Both the position numbers and the translations under genes were made by a program. Under the pieces are notes generated by a model, which did not search any database, had not been told where the DNA came from, and saw only the letters and a program-made list of their open reading frames with translations. Below are positions 1 through 17,352 of a DNA stretch of 64,000 nucleotides, one piece after another (within the stretch, counting starts at the first letter, position 1; every line of letters starts with the position of its first letter). Location: positions 480,001 to 544,000 of the forward strand of contig JBJBCN010000003.1 of the NCBI GenBank assembly GCA_047285805.1, read 5' to 3'. This DNA is from Synechococcus sp. (GTDB taxonomy: Bacteria > Cyanobacteriota > Cyanobacteriia > PCC-6307 > Cyanobiaceae).

Positions 1-1045
<1,045 letters not shown>

Positions 1046-1056
1046 GCCGGAAGAAT

Positions 1057-2184
1057 ATGCACGTCTCATTCTTTAAAAAGCCTCAAATTAACTCTCAATA
1101 TCGAAAAAAGTTCTATGAGTACCTAGATCAACTCATTACCGGTGATGATTCGCTAGTTTTGGGTCACTACTGTAAGGAGTTTGAAAAAGAGTTTGCTAGA
1201 ACTCTTGGTGCTTCTCATTGTAACTTTGTCTCTAATGGCTTAGATGCTCTTTCAATTGCACTGAGAGCCGTAGGTGTACAGGCTGATGATGTTGTTATTG
1301 TTCCCAACCACACTTACATTGCAACTTGGATCGCACCTCTCTCAATTGGCTGCAATTTGATAGTCGCACCTGTTTCTGAGATTGATCTATTACTTGAGCC
1401 CTCTACGATTGAGAAGTATATAACAAGCAAAGTTCGTTGTATTATTCCCGTTCACTTATATGGGAATGCGTGCCAAATGCAGAAAATCATGTGTTTGGGT
1501 GAAAAGCACTCCCTAGTTGTTGTTGAGGATGCAGCTCAGGCACATGGAGCTAGATCTGGTGACAAATATATAGGTAATTGGGGTGATGCAACATGCTTTA
1601 GTTTTTATCCAACTAAAAACTTAGGTGCTCTTGGAGAAGCGGGTGCTGTTACCACGAACGACCCTAGGATCGCATCATTTGTTCAAAGCTATAAGAACTA
1701 TGGACGCTCTTTGTCTGATCCGTCTCTTAATACTCTGCTAGGTTCAAATCATCGTGGCGATGAAATTCAGGCAGCATTCTTAACTATTAAGCTCATGGCT
1801 CTCGATAAAATCATTAAAAGGCGACACGAAATAATCCAAAGGTATGAGCAGCGTATTAATGGCTCTACACTACCTTTTAAGCTGCTTCCATATCATAATT
1901 GTCAGAGTTCTCCCCATCTAGCAGTTGTACGTACAGAGAACAAAGCAACCAGAGACTCTCTCGCCGCATATTTGCACGCTAAGCAGATAGATGCTCCAAT
2001 TCACTATAAAAGACCTTGCCACACACAGCCGTGTATTGACACACAAAGAATTTCGATCGACCAAGAGTGCAAAGAACAGGCTCTCAAGATTTCTGAGACT
2101 ATCCTCTCAATTCCAATGAGTGAAGTACATACTAATGAAGAAATCGACTATGTGATTGAGACTCTTTGCCAATATGAATCATAA
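1057..2184 (+). CDS. DegT/DnrJ/EryC1/StrS PLP-dependent sugar aminotransferase (FdtB/QdtB-like)
   Basis: SNGLDAL, IIPVHLYG, VEDAAQAHGA, SFYPTKNLGALGEAGA (PLP lysine). Confidence 0.92.
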   Translation: MHVSFFKKPQINSQYRKKFYEYLDQLITGDDSLVLGHYCKEFEKEFARTLGASHCNFVSNGLDALSIALRAVGVQADDVVIVPNHTYIATWIAPLSIGCNLIVAPVSEIDLLLEPSTIEKYITSKVRCIIPVHLYGNACQMQKIMCLGEKHSLVVVEDAAQAHGARSGDKYIGNWGDATCFSFYPTKNLGALGEAGAVTTNDPRIASFVQSYKNYGRSLSDPSLNTLLGSNHRGDEIQAAFLTIKLMALDKIIKRRHEIIQRYEQRINGSTLPFKLLPYHNCQSSPHLAVVRTENKATRDSLAAYLHAKQIDAPIHYKRPCHTQPCIDTQRISIDQECKEQALKISETILSIPMSEVHTNEEIDYVIETLCQYES

Positions 2185-2630
2185 CCCCCTTCAGCTGATA
2201 ATCGGATTCCTTTAGCTTGGTTCCCTGAAACAACTGTATGGCATGCTACTGACATTGTTGCAACGCTTAGTTGCTGAAACCATAGAGCCTTTGCTAATTC
2301 TGATACGTGGCAAGATCACAGCTGCAGCACTAATGCGGCACCCTTCTTCAACTAAGATTATCTCAGGCTGCTTGCAATATTAGCTCTTTGGTTTTAAGTC
2401 GTTGAAGAAAGGCACCCAAGGTCCTATTAAAATAGAATCAATAATGATTCCTCCTCGCCAAAGAGAGACTTTTTTGATAGCAACTAGGTCACCTGTAATA
2501 GCCACGCTCTCAACAAAACACCTGTCAGATATGCTGCGGTCAGCACCAATTATTGCGCCTGAAATCATACTAACATATGACAATAACCTTTGTCTTTCTC
2601 CTACAAGCAAAGTCTTGATCACAGGGTGAC
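2185..2630 (-). pseudogene. degraded hexapeptide-repeat sugar N-acyltransferase (FdtC/WxcM N-terminal-like)
   Basis: GAIIGADRSISDRCFVES...LIGPWVPFFNDLKPKS, in-frame TAA at 2382-2380, then YCKQPEIILVEEGCRISAAAVILPRIRISKGSMVSAT, a frameshift, and SVATMSVACHTVVSGNQAKGI; collinear with the family pattern TNDxxPRS...GASIGANATILPG...GNPAR. Confidence 0.75.
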
Positions 2631-2674
2631 GACCTTTGAAATACCCTTAAGCTGCAACCGCAAACTTATGAACA

Positions 2675-2683
2675 TGATACGAT
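2675..2683 (+). promoter_or_regulatory. possible extended -10 promoter element (TG-A-TACGAT)
   Basis: TGnTAnnnT about 24 nt upstream of the ATG at 2707; sequence match only. Confidence 0.3.
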
Positions 2684-2706
2684 GAGAATTACAAATAGTA
2701 ATCTTA

Positions 2707-4032
2707 ATGGATCAAGTCAAGGCAATAAAACTGCTTTCAGAAGGCGGAATTGAGAGGCTCTGCTTAGCTTTGATGGACTATGACTACGATCTTTATGCGC
2801 AGGCTAAAGAGAACGAAGGGCAGTTAAACTATCTTAGATATCAAGGCAAGATAGAGTGGGCCGTTCAAAACTATCTATACACTAATCTTTATGGCTCAGC
2901 GGAATCTGTAGCCACTTCGTTAGCGAAAAAAAATAGCCTGAACAAACAAACCTCCGTTGAATCTAAGTTTCTTGAAAAAACAATTCTTCTTCTTCATAAT
3001 CCAAGTTTGGCTGCACATATCTCTGTTCTCACATCTATGCAGGAGGCTTTCTTAGACTCATTCAGATCGGACGGTCTATACATAGCCGTTCTGTTTAAAG
3101 ATGTTGAATATGCTTGGTGGAAGGACGAGATTCAATCTAGAGGATTTACTTGCATTCCTCAACGTGACTGCTCTCCATTCCAAACACTGATGGAACTACG
3201 TGACGTATACCGACCTAAGCAATATATATGGTGGGGTCCTCCCGTCTACCAGTGGCTTAGTCCTCTAATTGATCCAGGTGCTATTCATCGAAGCGTCAGC
3301 TTTAAATACGATGTTCCTCAGTCGCCGCGCTTCAATTCACATCATATTGGCTATGGAAAAAACTATGCAAGCAAAATCAGTTCGGTGGTTCCAGTTTATG
3401 GCTTTCACCAACCAATCACTCTTTCATCGATGCCAGGTGTATTACCTTCTCAGCTTCAAGAAGCTGCATCTAAGTCTCAAATGTCGTTGAGAACTAACGC
3501 TATGTCAACTCGATCAAGAATAAATATAGGCGTACTTGCACGAGCCGAAAAAGTCGCACAGCCAAGCTATCTAGATGCGATTTTACAAATACTTCATCAA
3601 GACAATAGGCTTGTTTTTCATTGGACAGGACAGCACGAACGTGGCGATATATCTGCCGCTTTTGAAAAGTATGGCCTGGCAACCAGACACCATTTTCATG
3701 GTTGGGTGAATCCCTACGACTTTCTTTGCGAACTCGATCTCTACCTGGATACTTTTCCCTTTGGCACTGGTCAAAGCCTTGTGATGGCCGGATATATGGG
3801 ACTCCCAATCATTTCCTTAGTCTCACCTTATGAAGCTAGCTTCACTAACCTCTTCAATAACTTTCTGTTGGAAACTCTTACAGTGCAGTCAGCAAAGGAC
3901 TATGTAGCTCGCGTTCTTGACATATGTGCCGAAAGGCATGAAGTCCCTATTGGTAGTGAATTGCACGATCAATTCAGGCTATGCTTCGATCGTCAATCCC
4001 TAATTGACCTGCCGGCTCAACTTGCTCTGTAA
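2707..4032 (+). CDS. putative glycosyltransferase with GT41 (O-GlcNAc transferase/HMW1C-like) C-terminal domain
   Basis: C-terminal IGVLARAEK...FHGWV...LDLYLDTFPFGTGQSLVMAGYMGLPIISL resembles the SPINDLY/OGT pattern DxxLDTFPYNGxTTxxxALWMGVPVVTL; N-terminus unrecognised. Confidence 0.55.
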   Translation: MDQVKAIKLLSEGGIERLCLALMDYDYDLYAQAKENEGQLNYLRYQGKIEWAVQNYLYTNLYGSAESVATSLAKKNSLNKQTSVESKFLEKTILLLHNPSLAAHISVLTSMQEAFLDSFRSDGLYIAVLFKDVEYAWWKDEIQSRGFTCIPQRDCSPFQTLMELRDVYRPKQYIWWGPPVYQWLSPLIDPGAIHRSVSFKYDVPQSPRFNSHHIGYGKNYASKISSVVPVYGFHQPITLSSMPGVLPSQLQEAASKSQMSLRTNAMSTRSRINIGVLARAEKVAQPSYLDAILQILHQDNRLVFHWTGQHERGDISAAFEKYGLATRHHFHGWVNPYDFLCELDLYLDTFPFGTGQSLVMAGYMGLPIISLVSPYEASFTNLFNNFLLETLTVQSAKDYVARVLDICAERHEVPIGSELHDQFRLCFDRQSLIDLPAQLAL

Positions 4033-4802
4033 TGGCCTTTAACGGACACTTCCTGGCGATCGTTAAAGCATATATCGACCTGATCAACAATAGAAATGAA
4101 CCAATGCATCCAACGCGTACTCTTTTTAGTGTAGGCTTTCCTGATATCGTTTCTAAGCAAGGCTCCCTCGATCCTCACATTGATCAGCACTTAAAACCCT
4201 TTGAGATACATAGCCCAGAAACGCTGAGCTGGCATAATCTTCCCAACGATAATACATATACTACTTATAGCATGTCAAAATTTTGTGCTAGTGAAGGATG
4301 GGACTGTAAATACCTAGACATTGCGCCGGGCACCGGTGGCAATTCTTCATCATTTCACCATGTAGATCTTAACAACGACCTGGATCAGTCATTGTACTCA
4401 TCTTGTGACATACTTATTGACAGCGGCACTGCCGAGCACTGCTTTAATATAGGCAAGGTATTCGAAAACTACTTTCATATATTGCGACCCGGAGGTTTTG
4501 TATTGCAATATATTCCCTTCTTGTCGCCAAACCATGGATTCTGGAGCGCCAATCCAACTGTTTTTTATGATTTGGCAAGCTGTAATCCAATCAAGGTATT
4601 CTTGTGTGAAATGCAGTCATTTGCCAGCTACCGAGACTATTTCGTCGGCGACTATCAAAGCATTCCCTTTTCCCCGGTTTCTCGGTTTAAATTGCCTGCC
4701 GAGCTAAGCCTTGATATGACAGTGCTCATGTTCGCTGTATACAAAAAGTACAAGAAAAGTACTTTCAAGTATCCCATTCAGGCCAAATATCGCCCACTGT
4801 AG
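4032..4802 (+). CDS. class I SAM-dependent methyltransferase-like protein
   Basis: YLDI...VDLN...DILIDSGTAEHCFNIGKVFENYFHILRPGG; TAATG overlap with the upstream gene. Confidence 0.7.
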   Translation: MAFNGHFLAIVKAYIDLINNRNEPMHPTRTLFSVGFPDIVSKQGSLDPHIDQHLKPFEIHSPETLSWHNLPNDNTYTTYSMSKFCASEGWDCKYLDIAPGTGGNSSSFHHVDLNNDLDQSLYSSCDILIDSGTAEHCFNIGKVFENYFHILRPGGFVLQYIPFLSPNHGFWSANPTVFYDLASCNPIKVFLCEMQSFASYRDYFVGDYQSIPFSPVSRFKLPAELSLDMTVLMFAVYKKYKKSTFKYPIQAKYRPL

Positions 4803-5098
4803 AGTTCACTTATTGCGTCGACCATGTAGAATATGCTTCATCTCACCTTCTGAGGTTACATTACGTTAATAGTATATCTTTCTTGGGCCTTAGACAAGCC
4901 GCATCCCTATTCCTGACTTCCACTCGATATGGGAACTAGTTGTTTCCCTAATTAATGGAACCCTGACCCGTTGTTTGCTCCTTATTTGCGTGGGGTGGGG
5001 TGCTGGCGTTCTTGCTTTCCTGTTGGTCTCACGGTCTTCGCCGTATGAAAGCAATGCTCCCAGTAGTATGGTCGCTTATTAGCGACCATACTCGTTCC

Positions 5099-5107
5099 TG
5101 CTATGAT
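5099..5107 (+). promoter_or_regulatory. possible extended -10 promoter element (TG-C-TATGAT)
   Basis: near-consensus TGnTATAAT about 26 nt upstream of the GTG at 5133. Confidence 0.35.
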
Positions 5108-5132
5108 TCGTCTACGTTATTGATGTGTCAGT

Positions 5133-5714
5133 GTGAGTGTCATTACAGATGCATACCTCAAAGAGCAGCAAGAACTACACAAGAATCCTAAGTATGGTAT
5201 TGCCTCCACAATATATGCTCCAGTTGTAACTGAGGTAATTAAACAGCTAAAAATATCTACACTAACCGATTATGGTGCCGGGAAGCAAAGACTTTATCAA
5301 GCCTTGGTTGATAACGGCATACACCTAGAAAAATATAATCCTTATGATCCAGCTTTTCCTGAGTATGGAAATCCAAAGCCTGCGCAGCTAGTTTGCTGCA
5401 TAGATGTGCTTGAGCATGTTGAATTAGATTGCCTGGATGACGTGCTATCTGAAATTCATAGAAATATGCAAGGCTATTGTTTTCTGACTGTTCACATTGG
5501 GCCAGCAGCGAAGCATCTCTCTGATGGTCGCAATGCTCATATCACTCAGGCTCCATCATCATGGTGGCTAAAAAAGTTGACAGACTACTTTGAAGTCCTA
5601 CAGCTTCAAACAACTACTGCGCTTGGTCGAGGTTTCTGGATCATAGGTAGCAAGAAAAAAGGTGAGTTGAAGATAAACTCACATGAACGGCTTAAGAATT
5701 CTCCTCCTTCGTAA
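5133..5714 (+). CDS. class I SAM-dependent methyltransferase
   Basis: TDYGAGK motif I, YDPA, LVCCIDVLEHVE, GRNAHIT..SWWL. Confidence 0.8.
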   Translation: MSVITDAYLKEQQELHKNPKYGIASTIYAPVVTEVIKQLKISTLTDYGAGKQRLYQALVDNGIHLEKYNPYDPAFPEYGNPKPAQLVCCIDVLEHVELDCLDDVLSEIHRNMQGYCFLTVHIGPAAKHLSDGRNAHITQAPSSWWLKKLTDYFEVLQLQTTTALGRGFWIIGSKKKGELKINSHERLKNSPPS

Positions 5715-6130
5715 ACCCGTTGCTCGTTATTAACTAAATTGACTTTCTGCTGTCAGTGAGTTGATTCTCTGTTTCCTGCCTAGTCTTTTTTGGTTATTGC
5801 TTTGAATACACTTCGTTCAGCTGTTCGTCGAGTGGGGAGCTGGCGAGCCTTATATGTTTCTGACTAATGTCCCAGATGCTTTCGACTGACTGGGCGGTTT
5901 CAAACCTTTTTGCGATCCTCGCGGAATGCTTTCTTCTGACATAGACAAACATGCTGAACTCATTCATCTACACATAGTACCTTCGTTTTCTATATGAAGC
6001 TTGCAAAAGGCCAGTCTTTGCTCCCCATTCAATGGAAATATCGAAAGAACCGACTATGAAAAGTACAGCTACTATATCTACGGGAGGCCAGATCAACTTA
6101 CCCGCTTGCTTCATGGAGGGTATACACTTC

Positions 6131-7282
6131 CTAGGCTGAAACATTAGCCATCGCAGCGAGGGCATCCTGAATCCATTTCTGCTCTCTTAATCTAAGCTGT
6201 TCAGACTTGCGGCTTAATAGCATCTCATCATCACGAAAGCGTTCTGTTAGCCTAGTTGCAATATAACGTGTAAGATCTAGCTGATAAATAGAATCAGCTT
6301 TCAGATGTTCAATTAGCATCTTTTCAACTCTTGCATAACCAATGGCCATATCACTTAAGCCATGAACTGCAGCACCTAATCCAAATAGCTTGAGATAAGG
6401 CTGGCAAAGCTCTCCCATTACAGCGGCATCATGATCAGTAAGTCTGTAGCCCTTCTTAGCCTTTGCTGAGGCAAAGCCCTGAATACCTACACTTCGTGTT
6501 GTCAAAGGAGTCGTAAAACTAGATCCACAGAATGTAGACTGATGCAATGATGAATGATAGCTAATACCAAGGTATGAACATATTCTGTTCAGTGAACTGA
6601 GTGTATCTGTCTTCAACTCTTCAAGCGTAATCGTCATAGCATTGTGGTGAGCCTTAAAGGCTATTGCGTCACTCATGGAAAACATCCAAAAGAACGAGAA
6701 AATCTTCGCCGGATCAGCCGAAAGGTCGGCAACCCATGTTGTAAGAGACTCAATATTATCCTTAAGCCCCCTTCCCTGCATAATCACTTTAAAACTAGAA
6801 TCTACCGAATACCCCACTGCCTCTTTAACGCTACCAATTGGGTCAATTACATCAGCATTGAGCAGTAGGTTGCCGTTACTTGTTTTTATATCTAGGCAAA
6901 GGTTGTGCACAAGTGCCAGGGATCTTAATATAGTCTCCTGAGAATCACCCGCTCCAAGGCTCTTATGTAAATATCCTTGCTCTTCTGCACATCTTGTTAA
7001 TCGTGACAACGTTAGATTATATGGAAGCCTCGAAGGGCCGGCTTTTATCGCGTCTAAGCCACCCATTCGAACATGCACCGGTGAAAATTGTTCTGAGTGA
7101 AATACTTTTAAAACTTCTTCAAATGTAATGCTGCTACGCTCTTCATATACTGTCTGGTTAAGCCACTGCCAAGTCCGAAATAGTCCCGAGCCGGGCACCG
7201 TAATGATGTCTGGATGGTCGCTCAAAAGGCTTTGATGAAAGTAACAACCGCATCGTCCTTGAGGCAAGATAATATAAATCAT
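6131..7282 (-). CDS. divergent sulfotransferase-fold protein; candidate phosphoramidate transferase
   Basis: N-terminal QGRCGCYFHQSLLSDHPDI resembles the sulfotransferase 5'-PSB region GRSGTTLLQSLLDGHPEI; ITLEELKTDTLSSLNRICSYLGISYHSSL resembles (Y)EDLxxDPxxxLxxICxFLGI; ATGA-coupled to the cytidylyltransferase. Confidence 0.55.
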   Translation of the reverse strand: MIYIILPQGRCGCYFHQSLLSDHPDIITVPGSGLFRTWQWLNQTVYEERSSITFEEVLKVFHSEQFSPVHVRMGGLDAIKAGPSRLPYNLTLSRLTRCAEEQGYLHKSLGAGDSQETILRSLALVHNLCLDIKTSNGNLLLNADVIDPIGSVKEAVGYSVDSSFKVIMQGRGLKDNIESLTTWVADLSADPAKIFSFFWMFSMSDAIAFKAHHNAMTITLEELKTDTLSSLNRICSYLGISYHSSLHQSTFCGSSFTTPLTTRSVGIQGFASAKAKKGYRLTDHDAAVMGELCQPYLKLFGLGAAVHGLSDMAIGYARVEKMLIEHLKADSIYQLDLTRYIATRLTERFRDDEMLLSRKSEQLRLREQKWIQDALAAMANVSA

Positions 7283-8043
7283 CTTTCTAGTGAAGAGGAA
7301 GTCTTAAAGGCACCGGCAATCATCTCCATTGAATTGTAAAGAAGCAAGTCTGCTTCTTCGTCTACTTCACCCCATCCGTCTGAGTAAGGAACTCCGTAAA
7401 TAGTGCCTGAATCAGACTTCGCTATGCAATTTAAGATGTCGGTCATAAACATCTTATCAACTTTCTTGTTGGACGTCCTTGAAAGCTCGTCCTTGATAAT
7501 GCCCCAACCTTCAGCCGTAAACTTCATCAATCCCATATACTGACCCATAATCCTGTCAAGAGAAACACCCTTTTCGCCCAGCTCGACTACGCGCCTATCT
7601 CTATCGATAATAAAAGACTCTGCATCACTGAGAGGATTCTTAAAGCGTCTCGACCATAGATCGAGCCAGTTCTCATCATACAAGATGGCTATATCATGAA
7701 GAGATCCGATGAGGCTCTCGATAGCAGATGCCTGATAAAATATATCAGAATAACTGACAACTGTAGCGCTCGTAGAAAGCCATTCTGAAGCCGCAAGCAA
7801 CGATCTAACCATATTACTATGCTCCCAACATCTATTTTCGAATGTCACTAATCCTTTATCGGTAAGCATGTCAGCTCTATAGCCAGTAACAATCGCTATC
7901 TCCCGAATGCCAGCCTGATTCAGCGAATTAATCTGTCTATCCAAAAGAGATACTCCTTTAACTTCTACCAAGCACTTTGGCCGATTAAGTGTATGCTTTC
8001 CCATCCTCGAGCCGCGTCCTGCTGCTAAAATCAATCCCTTCAT
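7279..8043 (-). CDS. nucleotidyltransferase of the LicC/phosphocholine cytidylyltransferase family (Cj1416-like CTP:phosphoglutamine cytidylyltransferase)
   Basis: LILAAGRGSRM...RPKCLV, NMVRSL, VVSYSDIFY, PLSDAESF, GQYMGLMKF, WGEVDEEADL. Confidence 0.85.
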   Translation of the reverse strand: MKGLILAAGRGSRMGKHTLNRPKCLVEVKGVSLLDRQINSLNQAGIREIAIVTGYRADMLTDKGLVTFENRCWEHSNMVRSLLAASEWLSTSATVVSYSDIFYQASAIESLIGSLHDIAILYDENWLDLWSRRFKNPLSDAESFIIDRDRRVVELGEKGVSLDRIMGQYMGLMKFTAEGWGIIKDELSRTSNKKVDKMFMTDILNCIAKSDSGTIYGVPYSDGWGEVDEEADLLLYNSMEMIAGAFKTSSSLER

Positions 8044-8624
8044 AAAAATAGGCTCTGAATACGGTCAAGCACAAAAGAGTCTAGTTGAGGTTCTCTCTCT
8101 GGATGCCACATCCAACCTTCCCATGGCAAAGCCATATGCCTGATTGCTTCGATCTCCATATCTTCAGATCGCGCAATAACTTTAAAACCTATCGGGCACG
8201 ACTCAAGAGCATATTCGTGGAAACTATTGACGTTCCAACAGATATCCCCCGATAGTACATGCCTAACTTTGACGTGTGCGGCGACCCTATGCAGCGCAAC
8301 ACCTCCCCATTTACCCATGAGCTGCATTCCTCGACAAATGCCAAGAACGGGAAGCCTTTCTTCACTTGCTATATCTAGTATAGAGATCTCTGTATCGTCG
8401 CGCGATTGAGACTCTCCAAGATTATTTCCACCGGTCAACAAGAAACCACACGGCTTTACATGCCTAATCCACTCCTTGGTGTAAGGCCCCAACACATTGG
8501 GTATTGGCACTGGTAAAAAGCCGAGCCTTAAAACCATTTTACTAATCTTCTGGTCAATCGCGTCACGAGTCTCTTCTCGTGACGCGATTGTATCAACACG
8601 CTGAGTGACTCCTATAACTCTCAT
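8040..8624 (-). CDS. class I glutamine-amidotransferase-fold hydrolase (Cj1417-like gamma-glutamyl-CDP-amidate hydrolase)
   Basis: IGVTQRVD...ETRDAID, LLTGGN, PVLGICRGMQ (catalytic Cys), VNSFH, MWHPER (His-x-Glu); start at 8624 by ATGA overlap. Confidence 0.85.
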   Translation of the reverse strand: MRVIGVTQRVDTIASREETRDAIDQKISKMVLRLGFLPVPIPNVLGPYTKEWIRHVKPCGFLLTGGNNLGESQSRDDTEISILDIASEERLPVLGICRGMQLMGKWGGVALHRVAAHVKVRHVLSGDICWNVNSFHEYALESCPIGFKVIARSEDMEIEAIRHMALPWEGWMWHPEREPQLDSFVLDRIQSLFL

Positions 8625-10936
8625 GGAAGAATCGTCACCTTCTTCTTGGCGCAATCGAGGTGAACTCGATCAGCCATCGAAATCTTTCTGTAGAGAACTT
8701 CTCCAGTACCTATAACAGCCGGAAGCCCCAGCTCACCCGCACGAATAGCCATATGTGAATTAACCCCGCCCCAAGCTGTTACTAATCCCCCAATCCCGTA
8801 AGCAAAAAGCCAGTCATAACCCGGGTCTGCATGTGAAATGCATACAATCTTTCCTTCTAAAGCATTTGAATTATCTGCAAAGCACACTGATGAGACTATT
8901 TCTTTTTGACTTATAAAGTTTGGAATCGTTTCAGGCCACTCAAACTGCCATACATCTGAATGATCGACTATTAGGGGTGGAAGAGTCGTTCTGAGCGCTG
9001 CCTCATACTGGACACGCCCTTGTTCAATCGAAGTATTCAAAAGCTTGACGGGATCTGTCGCTGAAACTGCTAGTTCCTGGAAGGCCCTTATCTCACAGAA
9101 TGCAAGATCTTCACGACTGAAACCGTAGCTTTCTCCTACCTGCGAGACTAACTCAAGCGCATCTGAAAGATTCTTTGAAAATTCAAACTTTGCCAGTTCC
9201 CGCATCTCAATACCTGTTTGCATAAAGTCAAATAGACTCACTGCATCGATATCTAATTCATGAGTTGATAAAAGATGATTTAACTCTTTCATCTGATCTA
9301 AACGCAGAGAAAACGATTCTTCCTGATGGTTCTTGCCTATGTCAGCGTCCCAGTTAAAATAACGGTCCGGAGCTTGGTCGTATCGTGGCGACGTTATGTC
9401 ATAAGTCCCAGGTCTTAAATGACCATAACGACGCAGAAAATTGGATCGATCCAGAGTTGTCCGATCGCGAGTCAACTTCTTGCTAACAGTTGACAGAGAC
9501 TCCATGAACCTATCAGCATCTGATCTGGACAATATTCCCGTTGTCACTAGGGATTGCAACATCTGAACAGCTATAAAGCCAGCCCGAGCTAGTCCTGCGA
9601 ATGGTAATGTCCCATAACGTTTGCCGTCTTCAAGTAGCCAATATATTTTTTCTATGGGATGAGCATCGCCGTGCAAAATTTGATCCCGTCTTTCCTTAAG
9701 TCTCCCAATCTTCTTAGAATCATTTAGCCATAGCCCCTTTTTGGGGTGAACAATGGCATTAGTCAGATCCTTGAGACTTTCAGAAATCCGCAGACAATCG
9801 TCTTTCGAAAAACCGCTTTCGCTGAGAACATCTAATCGAGAATCAAGGTCAAAAGTATAGCACGAAAAAACTATCTCAAACTCGATCTTGTCGTGCAGTG
9901 CCGGTTGCTCAAGAAGCTTCCCGAGGTAGTAGTCAGCCAACCTTGTTGCAATATGCTCTTCTAGCGACGCAGGTATGAACGAGTTAAAAGATAGTCTTAC
10001 ATCTATGTACGGAAGTCCATAGAAATTAGGCATCAGGGGGAAGCTACGAAGGTTCCTATACCCATAGTTATGACGTTGGTAAGCCCATATTGAATCCGTT
10101 ACCATATCTCTATATAGGGACAAAGCTAAAGGCTGAGGACGCAGGCCAACTATTTCAGCCGGATTCCAGTCAGGCATTACTCCATAAACAGTTCTACTTC
10201 CTAGCAAGAAGGAATGCTTTTTCATTCCATCTCTTACCTTATCTTCAATAGACTTTAATCGCTTCTCCTGGCTCTCTTCAGATTCGGGGGTTCTAGCTAA
10301 GACCAGTGGTCGAACCTGAAGTAGCCAAGTCTCAGATTCCTCACGCTCTTGTGTAACTGCAAACTCGCAATCAATAGGCGAATCGTTGAATAGGTGAAGT
10401 AGCTCTTTGAGTAGACTTATTATTGGTGCTAAGGCCGGTAATGGCGCCAATTGGCTCTTAGAAGCCTGTTGCCATATACGACCTCCTTGCCCGCTAGTGA
10501 CAAACTCAGTATCATCTGAATCTGACCAGTTAACTACTCTATATGCTGATCCGTTCGCTGGATCGTGAGAAAAAGCAACACCGGAGCGTATTACATTCTT
10601 TAGCATCGGCTGTATTAGTACCTGATCAGCGTCATTCTCTCGACCATATGAGCTGAAAACATTATCTACCGACTCTTCTAGGTCCTTTCTCTCCACATTG
10701 GGCACTGACAGAAACGCACCAGCGTTAGAGGCGATGCGTGTGTCTTCAAGTCTGCAGCTAGACCGGACAATAAAGCTATTTGATCCATTCAAGGCCTTCA
10801 CTGCCTCATTGATCACGCTTTTCTTATTCTCTTTCCAGCTCTTTAGCGTCAATATATATGATTCCGGGACTCTCGCCGACATTAGTCGTGATCTGACGAG
10901 CTCCAGGTTGTCAGCTTTCGTAGAAAAGCTCACCAT
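8621..10936 (-). CDS. PEP-synthase/PPDK-like swivelling-His kinase (Cj1418-like L-glutamine kinase)
   Basis: N-terminal ATP-grasp IVRSS..ED...SNAGAFLS and LQVRPL; central GVMPDWNPAEIVGLRP, WAYQR.NYGYR, KRYGTLPFAG; C-terminal phospho-His domain GGVNSHMAIRAGELGLPAVIG. Confidence 0.9.
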   Translation of the reverse strand: MVSFSTKADNLELVRSRLMSARVPESYILTLKSWKENKKSVINEAVKALNGSNSFIVRSSCRLEDTRIASNAGAFLSVPNVERKDLEESVDNVFSSYGRENDADQVLIQPMLKNVIRSGVAFSHDPANGSAYRVVNWSDSDDTEFVTSGQGGRIWQQASKSQLAPLPALAPIISLLKELLHLFNDSPIDCEFAVTQEREESETWLLQVRPLVLARTPESEESQEKRLKSIEDKVRDGMKKHSFLLGSRTVYGVMPDWNPAEIVGLRPQPLALSLYRDMVTDSIWAYQRHNYGYRNLRSFPLMPNFYGLPYIDVRLSFNSFIPASLEEHIATRLADYYLGKLLEQPALHDKIEFEIVFSCYTFDLDSRLDVLSESGFSKDDCLRISESLKDLTNAIVHPKKGLWLNDSKKIGRLKERRDQILHGDAHPIEKIYWLLEDGKRYGTLPFAGLARAGFIAVQMLQSLVTTGILSRSDADRFMESLSTVSKKLTRDRTTLDRSNFLRRYGHLRPGTYDITSPRYDQAPDRYFNWDADIGKNHQEESFSLRLDQMKELNHLLSTHELDIDAVSLFDFMQTGIEMRELAKFEFSKNLSDALELVSQVGESYGFSREDLAFCEIRAFQELAVSATDPVKLLNTSIEQGRVQYEAALRTTLPPLIVDHSDVWQFEWPETIPNFISQKEIVSSVCFADNSNALEGKIVCISHADPGYDWLFAYGIGGLVTAWGGVNSHMAIRAGELGLPAVIGTGEVLYRKISMADRVHLDCAKKKVTILP

Positions 10937-10940
10937 GTTT

Positions 10941-11714
10941 CTACTTCTTAACTCTTGCTGACCAGGCTCGAGTTAGGTATGTAGCATTTATGCATTCTAA
11001 GCTACTAACCTTTTCCTCTACATACTGCATGAATTCCTCGAATGAGTTGGGCCCTAGCTGAACTCTTAGGTCATTAACAGATCTCCACGCTGTCAAATAT
11101 CTTTCAGTGCTCATCGCAATCTCATGAGTGGCTTCCATGTAGATAACATCCTCAAAGAGTCGAGACTCCCTAAGTCTTTGCGTCAATGACTCGGTCATGC
11201 CTGATCTGCCAGATGAAACGCGTCTCACAGAAGGCTTGATGACTTTGATCTGTGCTTCAATTTCGACTAAAAGTGGGTTGGCTTCAATGAGTCGTGGGTT
11301 CCAAACAGCTGTGAAAACACCTTCTGGTTTTAAAACCCTATAAAATTCTTGTGTTGCAGTTTCAAAATCTGCCCAGTGAAAGCTTGACGCCATACTCACC
11401 CAATCACTACTTGATGACGGCAGCCCTGTATGCTCGGCAGAGCCTTTAAGCCACTGAATCTGCTTACCTGCGCTATCTAAGATCCCTGCATCTCTCATAT
11501 CATCATTTGGCTCGACAGCCGTGGAGGAATAAACACCCTTAGAGGCAACCATCCGTGTCCATATTCCAGTCCCTGCACCAATATCAGTAAAAGCAATATC
11601 TGACACCTGCTTACCTGTATATCCAATTATGGAACTGATTACCGAATCGCTGTAGTTGGGGCGGCTAGATGAGTAACTGGAGGCAAGCCCAGTGAAATCA
11701 GCATGCTTTAGCAT
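10941..11714 (-). CDS. class I SAM methyltransferase (Cj1419-like candidate phosphoramidate O-methyltransferase)
   Basis: DFT.LA..Y..RP.YS, DIGAGTG, AVEPNDDMR, MASSFHW, FTAVWNPR, RVSSG, AWRSVND, RAWSAR; ATG at 11714. Confidence 0.85.
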   Translation of the reverse strand: MLKHADFTGLASSYSSSRPNYSDSVISSIIGYTGKQVSDIAFTDIGAGTGIWTRMVASKGVYSSTAVEPNDDMRDAGILDSAGKQIQWLKGSAEHTGLPSSSSDWVSMASSFHWADFETATQEFYRVLKPEGVFTAVWNPRLIEANPLLVEIEAQIKVIKPSVRRVSSGRSGMTESLTQRLRESRLFEDVIYMEATHEIAMSTERYLTAWRSVNDLRVQLGPNSFEEFMQYVEEKVSSLECINATYLTRAWSARVKK

Positions 11715-12297
11715 TGTGCGATTTAACCCAACGTTCAATTGACTTTATCATTGATTCTGCGACCTTTACTGCGTTGCTCTCTGCATTGAACTCAAGCTCC
11801 CAGTTTGGATGCTTGGGTTCATCTACAGGCAGGTCCAATCCTGCAACATTGGATAATTCACCAGATCGGAAGCGTTTGTATATGTCTTTGGGATCCCTCT
11901 CTTCTAGTTTCTGGAGCGGGACCTTTAGGTACGCCTCGAAATAATTTGCAATATTCTCCCTGTTCCATGAATATACTTCTTCGAACATAGATATAGTCGC
12001 TATTATCACAACGACTCCTTGGGAGGCTAGGAGCCTGCACAGCCGCGAATAGCTTCTCGCTAGCGACAATCTCTCTGATCGCATGTGTGCATCGCCTGTG
12101 TCTGTTGATCCAAAGACCTCTCTGAGCTCGTCGCCATCGAGGCGCACCACGCATTTCCCTAGTCCAATGTAGTGATCGGCTACTAGCTTTGCCGTTGTTG
12201 ACTTTCCAGCACCTGATAATCCTGTTATCCAAATCACGAGGCCTTCCTCCTTCTCTGAACTCGGACTTGTTTCCTTCTTTGTTTTTAGTGCTTTCAT
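11698..12297 (-). CDS. adenylyl-sulfate-kinase-fold P-loop kinase (Cj1415-like cytidine diphosphoramidate 3'-kinase)
   Basis: IWITGLSGAGKST, LDGDELRE, ATISMF (instead of the usual APS-kinase ISP motif), ERDPKDIY. Confidence 0.8.
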   Translation of the reverse strand: MKALKTKKETSPSSEKEEGLVIWITGLSGAGKSTTAKLVADHYIGLGKCVVRLDGDELREVFGSTDTGDAHMRSERLSLARSYSRLCRLLASQGVVVIIATISMFEEVYSWNRENIANYFEAYLKVPLQKLEERDPKDIYKRFRSGELSNVAGLDLPVDEPKHPNWELEFNAESNAVKVAESMIKSIERWVKSHNAKAC

Positions 12298-13301
12298 GCT
12301 GTGGTTTGCCCAGGTTTTCCTGCTGTCGAATAGCTGATTGGCGCATACTAACGTCTAGCGGTGTCAAGTTAACTTTCAATCTTGGTTTGTCGCCATCTTT
12401 ATTCTTCTCTGACCCAGTGGGTGTGTTGCATAGTTGCTGTGCTTGTCGTTACTAGCATTCAAGGTTATGAGTATGTTTTACTTGGGCTTTCTCATTGATC
12501 GTGATATTAGCGTGTCTATGTGCTTAAGCCCTTTTGAGCTTTGCCTCTACGCCTTTATCCGTATTGACGCTCTTTGAACATATGACTTTCGCTTTCGAGC
12601 AAAGTATGTCGTCAAGAGTTCTTGTGTTTATCTCCGTCTGTCTCCATGAGCATGCAAATAGTTCCTGATGTTTTTACCTCAACTTCCAGGCTGAGCAGAC
12701 TTTGTCACTGATTGAGCGACTTGCCTTGACTCCTTGGTTGATTTAGTGCCTTGTTGTGTGATCTGTGTTTGTTGTCGCAAGTGTCTAGGCTAAAAGCATC
12801 GGAACTTCTGTTTCTTGACCAACAGCATTGTATAGACACGGAGAGCTTTGGCTTGAGCGATGTTGGTGCTTAGTCAGTGTGTGACTATCCCCTGCGCCGC
12901 ATTAGTTGCTTTGCTGCCTCAATCTCTTCATTCCCAGTCGCAAGGTGGAGCTGATGTATTATTTATGCAATCGCCCTTGTTAGAAGTCTTCCCTAGTATT
13001 TCTGCGGCCATCCGTTCAGCATTTGCATCCTGCGAGATCGCTTCTCACTCTTTGCTTAAGCAAGCAGTTTGAACTTACACTAATCCTGGTTGGGCTTGTG
13101 GGCGTCACCACAAAGCACTTCCTGCTGATATCTACAAGTAGTCCGAGTCACTATGTGTGGCCGCAAGTACTGATGCATGCAGATCAAGATCACGGTGCGG
13201 GATCTTGAAGGATTCTAGTAAGTTCTGGCTGAGCAGCAGCGCAACAGACCATTGCAGCCGCTTAAGCTCAAACACCTCTTTCAGCTAAACATTCTGGGCA
13301 T

Positions 13302-17037: not shown

Positions 17038-17352
<315 letters not shown>

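Follow-up and report, generated by a model that had tools for sequence, protein, structure and literature searches.

A six-gene operon in a picocyanobacterial genome

We examined a 64,000-nucleotide (nt) stretch of Synechococcus sp. (contig JBJBCN010000003.1 of assembly GCA_047285805.1, forward-strand positions 480,001–544,000; hereafter the window), which holds a minus-strand operon for the putative synthesis and use of an activated phosphoramidate. The host is a phototroph (its PsaC gene lies at 17053–17352 of the window) with a genome of 2.37 Mb and 61% guanine plus cytosine (GC), features that suggest a picocyanobacterium. From high to low coordinates, the operon encodes a cytidine-diphosphoramidate 3′-kinase-like protein of the Cj1415 type (199 aa, 11698–12297), a class I S-adenosylmethionine methyltransferase with a candidate role (257 aa, 10941–11714; Pfam Methyltransf_11, 3.6e-15), an L-glutamine kinase-like protein of the Cj1418 type (771 aa, 8621–10936), a gamma-glutamyl-cytidine diphosphate (CDP)-amidate hydrolase-like protein of the Cj1417 type (194 aa, 8040–8624), a nucleotidyltransferase placed in the Cj1416 type by position (254 aa, 7279–8043; Pfam NTP_transf_3, 2e-19) and a sulfotransferase-fold protein, the candidate phosphoramidate transferase (383 aa, 6131–7282).

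A first reading of the window made from its letters alone (the sequence-only reading) had described five contiguous, intact minus-strand genes with ATGA overlaps at 8621–8624 and 8040–8043. All five open reading frames (ORFs) are indeed open, both overlaps and all eight motifs that it quoted are present, and Pfam bears out its domain identities (APS_kinase, Methyltransf_11, PPDK_N plus PEP-utilizers, Peptidase_C26/GATase and NTP_transf_3). The five genes are not the whole unit, since a third ATGA overlap (7279–7282) joins the nucleotidyltransferase gene to the 383-aa sixth ORF, which had been overlooked; the operon thus has six genes, the last four coupled by ATGA overlaps. For the methyltransferase, ATG 11714 is the most likely start, giving 257 aa and a 17-nt overlap with the 3′-kinase stop. 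Scans for promoters and terminators stayed at chance level (11 versus 11.9 and 4 versus 5.6).

For comparison we used 80 loci carrying relatives of these genes (hereafter the cassette), the best 80 of at least 574 confirmed kinase relatives in genomes with names. All six window ORFs are full length. The first five proteins are 53–65% identical to their best relatives, and set against the nearest relatives from the 80 loci they retain 38/39, 75/79, 248/260, 45/48 and 65/67 of the columns conserved at 90% or more, a near-complete retention that argues against resemblance by chance.

Probable enzymes of the activated donor

In Campylobacter jejuni, four enzyme types yield CDP-phosphoramidate 3′-phosphate from glutamine, ATP and cytidine triphosphate (CTP), as described in passages of PMC11800397, PMC6429109 and PMC10971088. 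The O-methyl phosphoramidate (MeOPN) pathway of strain NCTC 11168 and the window operon share these four donor enzyme types (passages of PMC11800397), and in both they are found with methyltransferase genes and clustered in a surface-glycan locus.

The 771-aa kinase combines N-terminal ATP-binding and C-terminal phospho-His domains, the architecture of glutamine kinase, and its candidate phospho-His, His728, is found in all 9 sequences aligned. Against the NCBIfam equivalog PRK05849, which we take to contain Cj1418, it reached 973 bits (cut-off 501), and a relative 60% identical to it carries the JGI name 'glutamine kinase'. The 194-aa hydrolase has an intact triad (Cys97, His174 and Glu176 conserved); its best NCBIfam model is NF045546 GCDPHdlase at 98 bits, below the cut-off of 250, with the next model at 52.5, and two further cassette hydrolases likewise fall below that cut-off. 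The 254-aa nucleotidyltransferase is assigned from its fold and conserved gene position, no curated model scoring above cut-off, and its choice of CTP and substrate is putative.

The 199-aa kinase passed PRK05541 (186.7 bits, cut-off 127), a model that presumably contains Cj1415, and failed apsK (113.6 bits, cut-off 138.7). Its nearest solved structures are adenosine 5′-phosphosulfate (APS) kinases. In the Mycobacterium tuberculosis APS kinase CysC, the adenine of APS is sandwiched by Phe492 and Phe576, and Asp480, Arg483, Arg497 and Lys562 bind the ribose and phosphosulfate (passages of PMC4373884). The window kinase retains the latter four positions (Asp56, Arg59, Arg76 and Lys137) and has His71 and Val151 where CysC has the stacking pair. 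Phe stands at both stacking positions in 3/3 CysC rows of the alignment, and at the two positions in 4 and 1 of the other 74 cassette rows. A quick tree set 75 cassette 3′-kinases apart from the 3 CysC rows (100 by the Shimodaira–Hasegawa-like approximate likelihood ratio test). Because both adenine-stacking Phe are replaced and the host genome has a separate CysC, the 199-aa protein does not appear to be an APS kinase.

Evidence from family models, from residues of the active sites and from the conservation of gene order agrees with the Campylobacter-type route to an activated P–N donor that the sequence-only reading had put forward. Taken with the C. jejuni biochemistry, it makes a Cj1418/1416/1417/1415-type route to 3′-phospho-CDP-amidate highly probable in this host.

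Fused 3′-kinases were seen elsewhere (L011:6638–9178, L083:6642–9173, L059:1399–2922 and L078:564–1640): in Azospirillum the kinase follows 650 residues that match no Pfam family, in Thiobacillus it is joined to a GT2 domain and in an actinomycete to a C-terminal part of no family.

The sulfotransferase-fold protein and the proposed transfer step

A word-index search for relatives of the 383-aa protein gave none, and HMMER over representatives gave 65 matches including the protein itself. A profile of 30 relatives matched 44 PDB sequences, the best being the CurM sulfotransferase (7.7e-20); 43 of the 44 are named or known as sulfotransferases. In a fold search over 48,161 chains with the predicted structure (predicted local distance difference test score 77.7), the top 18 hits were all sulfotransferases (best Z 14.3, root-mean-square deviation 4.1 over 225 residues). 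Foldseek also matched the model to sulfotransferases at modest TM-scores (0.32–0.43 by query in the top ten), and the ESM Atlas was in agreement (0.97). Arg10-x-Gly12 and Arg171...Ser179 are conserved and align with the CurM motifs, of which we take the Arg-x-Gly loop to bind the 5′-phosphate and the Arg/Ser pair the 3′-phosphate of 3′-phosphoadenosine 5′-phosphosulfate (PAPS). As modelled, the sixth protein has a P-loop sulfotransferase fold. It is the sole member of its family in the host genome, where a Pfam search found one further weak sulfotransferase elsewhere.

The context of such genes was then counted across the 80 loci. The distance limit for scoring was 3 kb from the cassette for sulfotransferase-fold genes; for TagF-like genes, which belong to the CDP-glycerol glycerophosphotransferase family, it was 3 kb in one subfamily and 5 kb in the other. 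Profiles built here placed the former beside the cassette in 28/80 loci and the latter in 27/80; Pfam on 32 further proteins added one and three loci, giving totals of 29 and 30, with both genes in one locus. Among the 53 loci with sufficient flank, 21 had a sulfotransferase-fold gene, 22 a TagF-like gene, one both and nine neither. Of 31 sulfotransferase-fold genes, 25 lay within 500 bp of the cassette, where their density was 38 per 100 kb; farther away it did not exceed 1.6. PF13469 gave 121 matches over 234 Mb in 50 of these 53 genomes, which, coming from a different detector, is a rough yardstick only. The partner label required 18 changes on the kinase tree and so does not reflect a single inherited event. 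CysQ-like 3′,5′-bisphosphate nucleotidase genes, present in 13/80 loci, all lay within 500 bp of the cassette (14/14).

The reverse test used a profile of the sixth-protein family built blind to context, on 300 alphaproteobacterial genomes with the centre left out. The kinase was present in 5/9 genomes with the family and in 6/291 without it (p 2.8e-6, kin being non-independent). In four of the five co-occurring genomes the family gene adjoins the cassette, and in the fifth it adjoins a cassette-type 3′-kinase.

The genomic context of the sixth gene argues for a donor other than PAPS. We propose that the operon, horizontally acquired, would make and use an activated phosphoramidate, a reading to which we give about an even chance as a whole. 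The donor, 3′-phospho-CDP-amidate, would in all likelihood be built by the four steps known from the C. jejuni enzymes, and would be a mimic of PAPS. The sulfotransferase-fold protein could hold this donor through its 5′- and 3′-phosphate motifs, then pass PO2-NH2 to a surface-glycan hydroxyl and release cytidine 3′,5′-bisphosphate; family, motif and context evidence leaves this phosphoramidate transfer evenly balanced between true and false. The methyltransferase may O-methylate the transferred group in roughly half of the cases in which transfer holds. The acceptor is probably, on slighter grounds, an amino-sugar-containing glycan or glycoprotein made by the genes to the left of the operon.

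The likeness to the PAPS pathway (CysC, sulfotransferases and CysQ) lies in an APS-kinase fold that 3′-phosphorylates an activated nucleotide, in the sulfotransferase-fold partner and in the CysQ-like nucleotidase of 13/80 related loci. Unlike that pathway, the cassette has no ATP sulfurylase, the adenine sandwich is lost and phosphoramidate would be the group passed on. Cj1421/Cj1422 attach the group in C. jejuni (passages of PMC11800397), and in the literature passages the evidence for MeOPN-attaching enzymes comes from knockouts alone. The window, in contrast, has a coupled sulfotransferase-fold gene and no Cj1421/22-type gene was found in it. A search for DUF2972, which we take to be linked to Cj1421/Cj1422, gave no match in the host genome, nor did any control give a signal in it. 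We found no published report of phosphoramidate transfer by a sulfotransferase-fold enzyme, a point on which the primary enzymology of Cj1415–1418 may bear.

The methyl group fares less well. Of the sequence-only reading's apparently complete O-methyl phosphoramidate cluster, the donor pathway is supported; completeness and methylation are putative, Cj1419/Cj1420 being unassigned even in C. jejuni and no Cj1421/Cj1422 counterpart having been found. Cj1419 and Cj1420 had been named as the implicated methyltransferases, yet their knockouts left the C. jejuni capsule unaltered and hence give no functional assignment (passages of PMC11800397). The window operon has one methyltransferase where C. 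jejuni has these two. Methyltransferase relatives occur in 68/80 loci and form two subtypes, one of 26 genes with at least 45% identity and one of 45 genes with less; three loci have both, and redundancy could explain the silent knockouts. Unmethylated phosphoramidate is reported from Xanthomonas and Shewanella lipopolysaccharide (passages of PMC3907429).

Several observations weigh against this account of the sixth protein. It is without a close relative (best 33% identity) and lacks a His kept by 90% of its family. Neither partner gene was found in 22/80 loci, nine of them among the 53 well covered, and the local profiles were seeded from cassette neighbours, which biases them to near matches. 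Members of the family are also found where there is no cassette (2/3 other matches in 400 genomes of the host family, both in glycan loci next to a pyruvate-kinase-like gene), and four of the nine alphaproteobacterial genomes with the family have no kinase, three of them carrying long forms of 683–819 aa and one having the gene on a 3.6-kb contig. In locus L147 the cassette next to a family member shows no 3′-kinase within the 10.8 kb fetched.

The strongest rival keeps the donor pathway and makes the sixth gene an ordinary PAPS-dependent sulfotransferase acting on the same glycan, with another enzyme attaching the phosphoramidate. The cassette-free members of the family (in G041, G230 and the four alphaproteobacterial genomes) fit it, as do the nine well-covered loci without a recognised transferase, and the host CysC could supply the PAPS. 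It accounts poorly for the tight adjacency of sulfotransferase-fold genes to the cassette, for their near-exclusive alternation with TagF-like genes and for the reverse enrichment in alphaproteobacteria; moreover, no TagF-like gene was found in the host genome, by a search in which 3/14 controls gave a signal. We regard it as unlikely, though a serious contender.

Somewhat less likely again is an operon that is intact and silent, or whose product never reaches a surface polymer, being a soluble metabolite or part of an island in early decay. A broken acyltransferase gene and a decayed thiC copy (see below) mark the island as old, and no MeOPN signal was seen in 4/13 Campylobacter strains with cj1416–1418 orthologues (passages of PMC3907429). 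Related kinases also produce small molecules: TalE of phosphoramidon biosynthesis is likewise a PPDK-like kinase making a P–N bond, though it acts on a dipeptide amine, is less than 20% identical to Cj1418 and belongs to a system without cytidylyltransferase, hydrolase or 3′-kinase (passages of PMC6482885). Here, however, the operon neighbours are glycan genes, no TalE-type peptide-ligase partner is present, none of the six ORFs is truncated, and nearly all conserved columns persist in the five examined despite 53–65% identity to their best relatives.

It is improbable that the cassette makes some other activated group, through a different amide or amine phosphoryl acceptor or a nucleotide other than cytidine. 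Such a product would suit the sub-threshold hydrolase and the nucleotidyltransferase without a curated model. No C. jejuni protein was among the sets compared (the 80 loci, 14 plasmid and one phage records, and the PDB with four of the five proteins, the hydrolase left out), and cassette variants with formyltransferase-like genes exist. Against it, the kinase lies far above its equivalog cut-off, the best model of the hydrolase is by a wide margin gamma-glutamyl-CDP-amidate hydrolase, and the lost adenine sandwich of the 3′-kinase is compatible with a pyrimidine. Finally, a chance grouping of a phosphoenolpyruvate (PEP) synthase or rifamycin phosphotransferase (Rph), a true APS kinase and a sulfotransferase for sulfation only, as generic annotations of the homologues and the nearest solved structures of the 3′-kinase would have it, is largely refuted and very improbable: the 771-aa kinase did not exceed 42.6 bits on PEP synthase and Rph models, whose cut-offs are 598–1700, both stacking Phe are lost and CysC is separate, so that model scores, tree and residues all lead away from the matches that had been set beforehand as contrary outcomes.

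Some variants touch the transferase itself. In two genomes of the host's phylum, sulfotransferase-fold genes stand between cassette core genes (L112:6521–8305 and L113:4012–7604). Long TagF-like genes flank two cassettes of picocyanobacteria whose kinase is divergent (31–33%), and one of these genes has TPR repeats by Pfam (L009:6155–8206 and L010:10474–12132). A pyruvate-kinase-barrel gene adjoins a sulfotransferase-fold family gene in three glycan loci (L108:9096–11630, L109:8697–11204 and L147:3139–6661), two of them without a phosphoramidate cassette; such pairs possibly belong to another activated-group pathway. An apparent sulfotransferase–kinase fusion in L054 was ruled out, the two parts lying in different frames.

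Genomic island, distribution and meaning

The operon lies in a low-GC island between thiC and tkt (630–13060; about 12.5 kb, with GC of 0.437 over 600–13100 versus 0.61 for the genome). Third-position GC is 0.37–0.47 in the island versus 0.75–0.79 in two host genes. A decayed second 3′ end of thiC, with stops and gaps, forms the right border on the plus strand (13061–13240; it matches window positions 470–562 with 74% identity over 93 nt, E 1.4e-12, and thiC of a relative with 71% over 184 nt). In 4/7 loci from the host's genus, tkt lies no more than about 600 bp beyond thiC; the other three (L117, L120 and L121) have no tkt within 1.5 kb. The decayed copy and this adjacency suggest that the island inserted at the end of thiC and provided a new 3′ end, and insertions may be frequent at the thiC–tkt junction. 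None of the ORFs was recognised as an integrase. Further low-GC regions of the host genome are a small contig (C1, 6832 bases) and islands at 112000–138000, 260000–354000 and 394000–406000 of contig C3, the contig that has three more DegT-type aminotransferases in or near such islands.

The left half of the island begins with an fdtA-like sugar 3,4-ketoisomerase gene (626–1045, plus strand; Pfam FdtA, 3e-34). Met35 of the ORF at 524–1045 lands at 626, and its ATG overlaps the thiC stop as ATGA (626–629), so transcription of the left half probably runs on from thiC. An fdtB-like sugar aminotransferase gene follows (1057–2184, plus strand; Pfam DegT_DnrJ_EryC1, 1.3e-88), and then what remains of an inverted fdtC/WxcM-like acyltransferase gene, broken and with an in-frame stop (2272–2643, minus strand), which by tblastn is 35–39% identical (E to 2e-20) to genes adjoining fdtA in 10 related loci. 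This break and the absent product in some Campylobacter strains count, with the points gathered above, against a working decoration. The plus-strand genes beyond encode a 441-aa glycosyltransferase-like protein with weak likeness to protein N-glycosyltransferases (2707–4032; Pfam Glyco_trans_1_4, 1.2e-4) and methyltransferase-like ORFs of 256 aa (4032–4802; weak Pfam Methyltransf_12, E 0.028) and 193 aa (5133–5714; Pfam Methyltransf_23, E 8.6e-4). The best PDB match of the 441-aa protein is 8p0q (E 0.0055), presumably an N-glycosyltransferase; membership of GT41 was not supported, a pairwise comparison with a GT41 protein giving nothing significant. Genes like fdtA stand alongside the cassette in 9/80 loci. 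Unlike the C. jejuni capsule locus, this thiC island belongs to a phototroph and contains no long run of G/C that could serve phase variation.

Homologous clusters in other taxa, which the sequence-only reading thought possible, were found widely. Its view of the decoration as rare holds near the host, where the cassette occurs in 5/400 other genomes of the family and 0/29 of the genus; it does not hold among bacteria, with at least 7648 kinase clusters at 90% identity among 8000 candidates scored. The best of these are 59–61% identical to the window kinase, and the best bearing an organism name are proteobacterial. The 80 loci span Pseudomonadota, Verrucomicrobiota, Bacteroidota, Bacillota, Leptospira and others, and relatives of the 3′-kinase, hydrolase and nucleotidyltransferase each occur in 74/80. 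Three of the five family genomes have all five genes together, one is without a 3′-kinase in the region fetched and one has an interrupted kinase on a 2.9-kb contig; outside this count, Prochlorococcus locus L057 has all five in an identical order. The kinase was found in 11/400 other genomes of a phylum-wide draw, all in three families, and in 11/300 alphaproteobacterial genomes. In a FastTree tree with long branches, the window kinase groups with three alphaproteobacterial and two picocyanobacterial sequences (98% local support), and two other picocyanobacterial kinases lie far from it; at least two entries into the host family are indicated, at weak resolution. The collections scanned gave no sign of phage carriage, viral contigs yielding one partial kinase and phages one unannotated record.

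Other settings of the cassette include a genome with two cassette-type 3′-kinase genes (G279:C10:40577–45871), one with a stop, and the glutamine kinase on a different contig. A Vibrio plasmid (L012:9278–13583) carries an N-terminally extended glutamine kinase, hydrolase, nucleotidyltransferase and TagF-like gene near cysDN and PEP-CTERM genes. In five Pseudomonas loci (L063, L064, L067, L068 and L074) flgK/flgL-like genes precede the cassette, four of these loci having a formyltransferase-like gene and no methyltransferase, and a flagellin-like gene is close to the cassette in L029, L049 and L076 (names by sequence likeness). This neighbourhood suggests phosphoramidate on flagellin glycans.

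What is already known is the donor pathway; the cassette is widespread in bacteria and rare among the relatives of the host. A 2022 review nevertheless labels glutamine kinase as C. jejuni-specific (passage of PMC9561416). A Cobalt Borg carries a MeOPN-like cluster with Cj1418/1417/1416-like genes in a surface-glycan region, by prediction alone; unlike the window operon it belongs to an archaeal extrachromosomal element, and the passages concerned name no 3′-kinase or transferase (bioRxiv 10.1101/2024.11.05.622173). The phosphonate glycoprotein islands of Prochlorococcus SB are similar in being a low-frequency island pathway for unusual surface phosphorus in picocyanobacteria, present in about 5% of genomes as against 5/400 for the cassette; they differ in their C–P chemistry via PepM, shown there by nuclear magnetic resonance, and 'phosphoramid' is absent from the text as available (bioRxiv 10.1101/2020.11.04.368217). 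That phosphonate decoration was proposed as a defence (same source). A defence against cyanophage or grazers, as the sequence-only reading supposed for the window operon, is one option only, since phages of C. jejuni use MeOPN as a receptor and cells that lose or mask it become resistant (passages of PMC9561416).

More tentatively, and a little short of an even chance, the sixth-protein family would comprise phosphoramidate transferases using a cytidine mimic of PAPS; picocyanobacteria and marine alphaproteobacteria would exchange the cassette at low frequency, and P–N groups on surface glycans would be an unrecognised acid-labile form of marine organic phosphorus beside phosphonates. The compact six-gene unit singles out one soluble candidate for the transfer step. 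If the proposal is true, the sulfotransferase fold has acquired a phosphoryl-transfer function, many 'adenylyl-sulfate kinase' and 'sulfotransferase' annotations would be wrong, and picocyanobacteria would have a second unusual phosphorus decoration of the cell surface.

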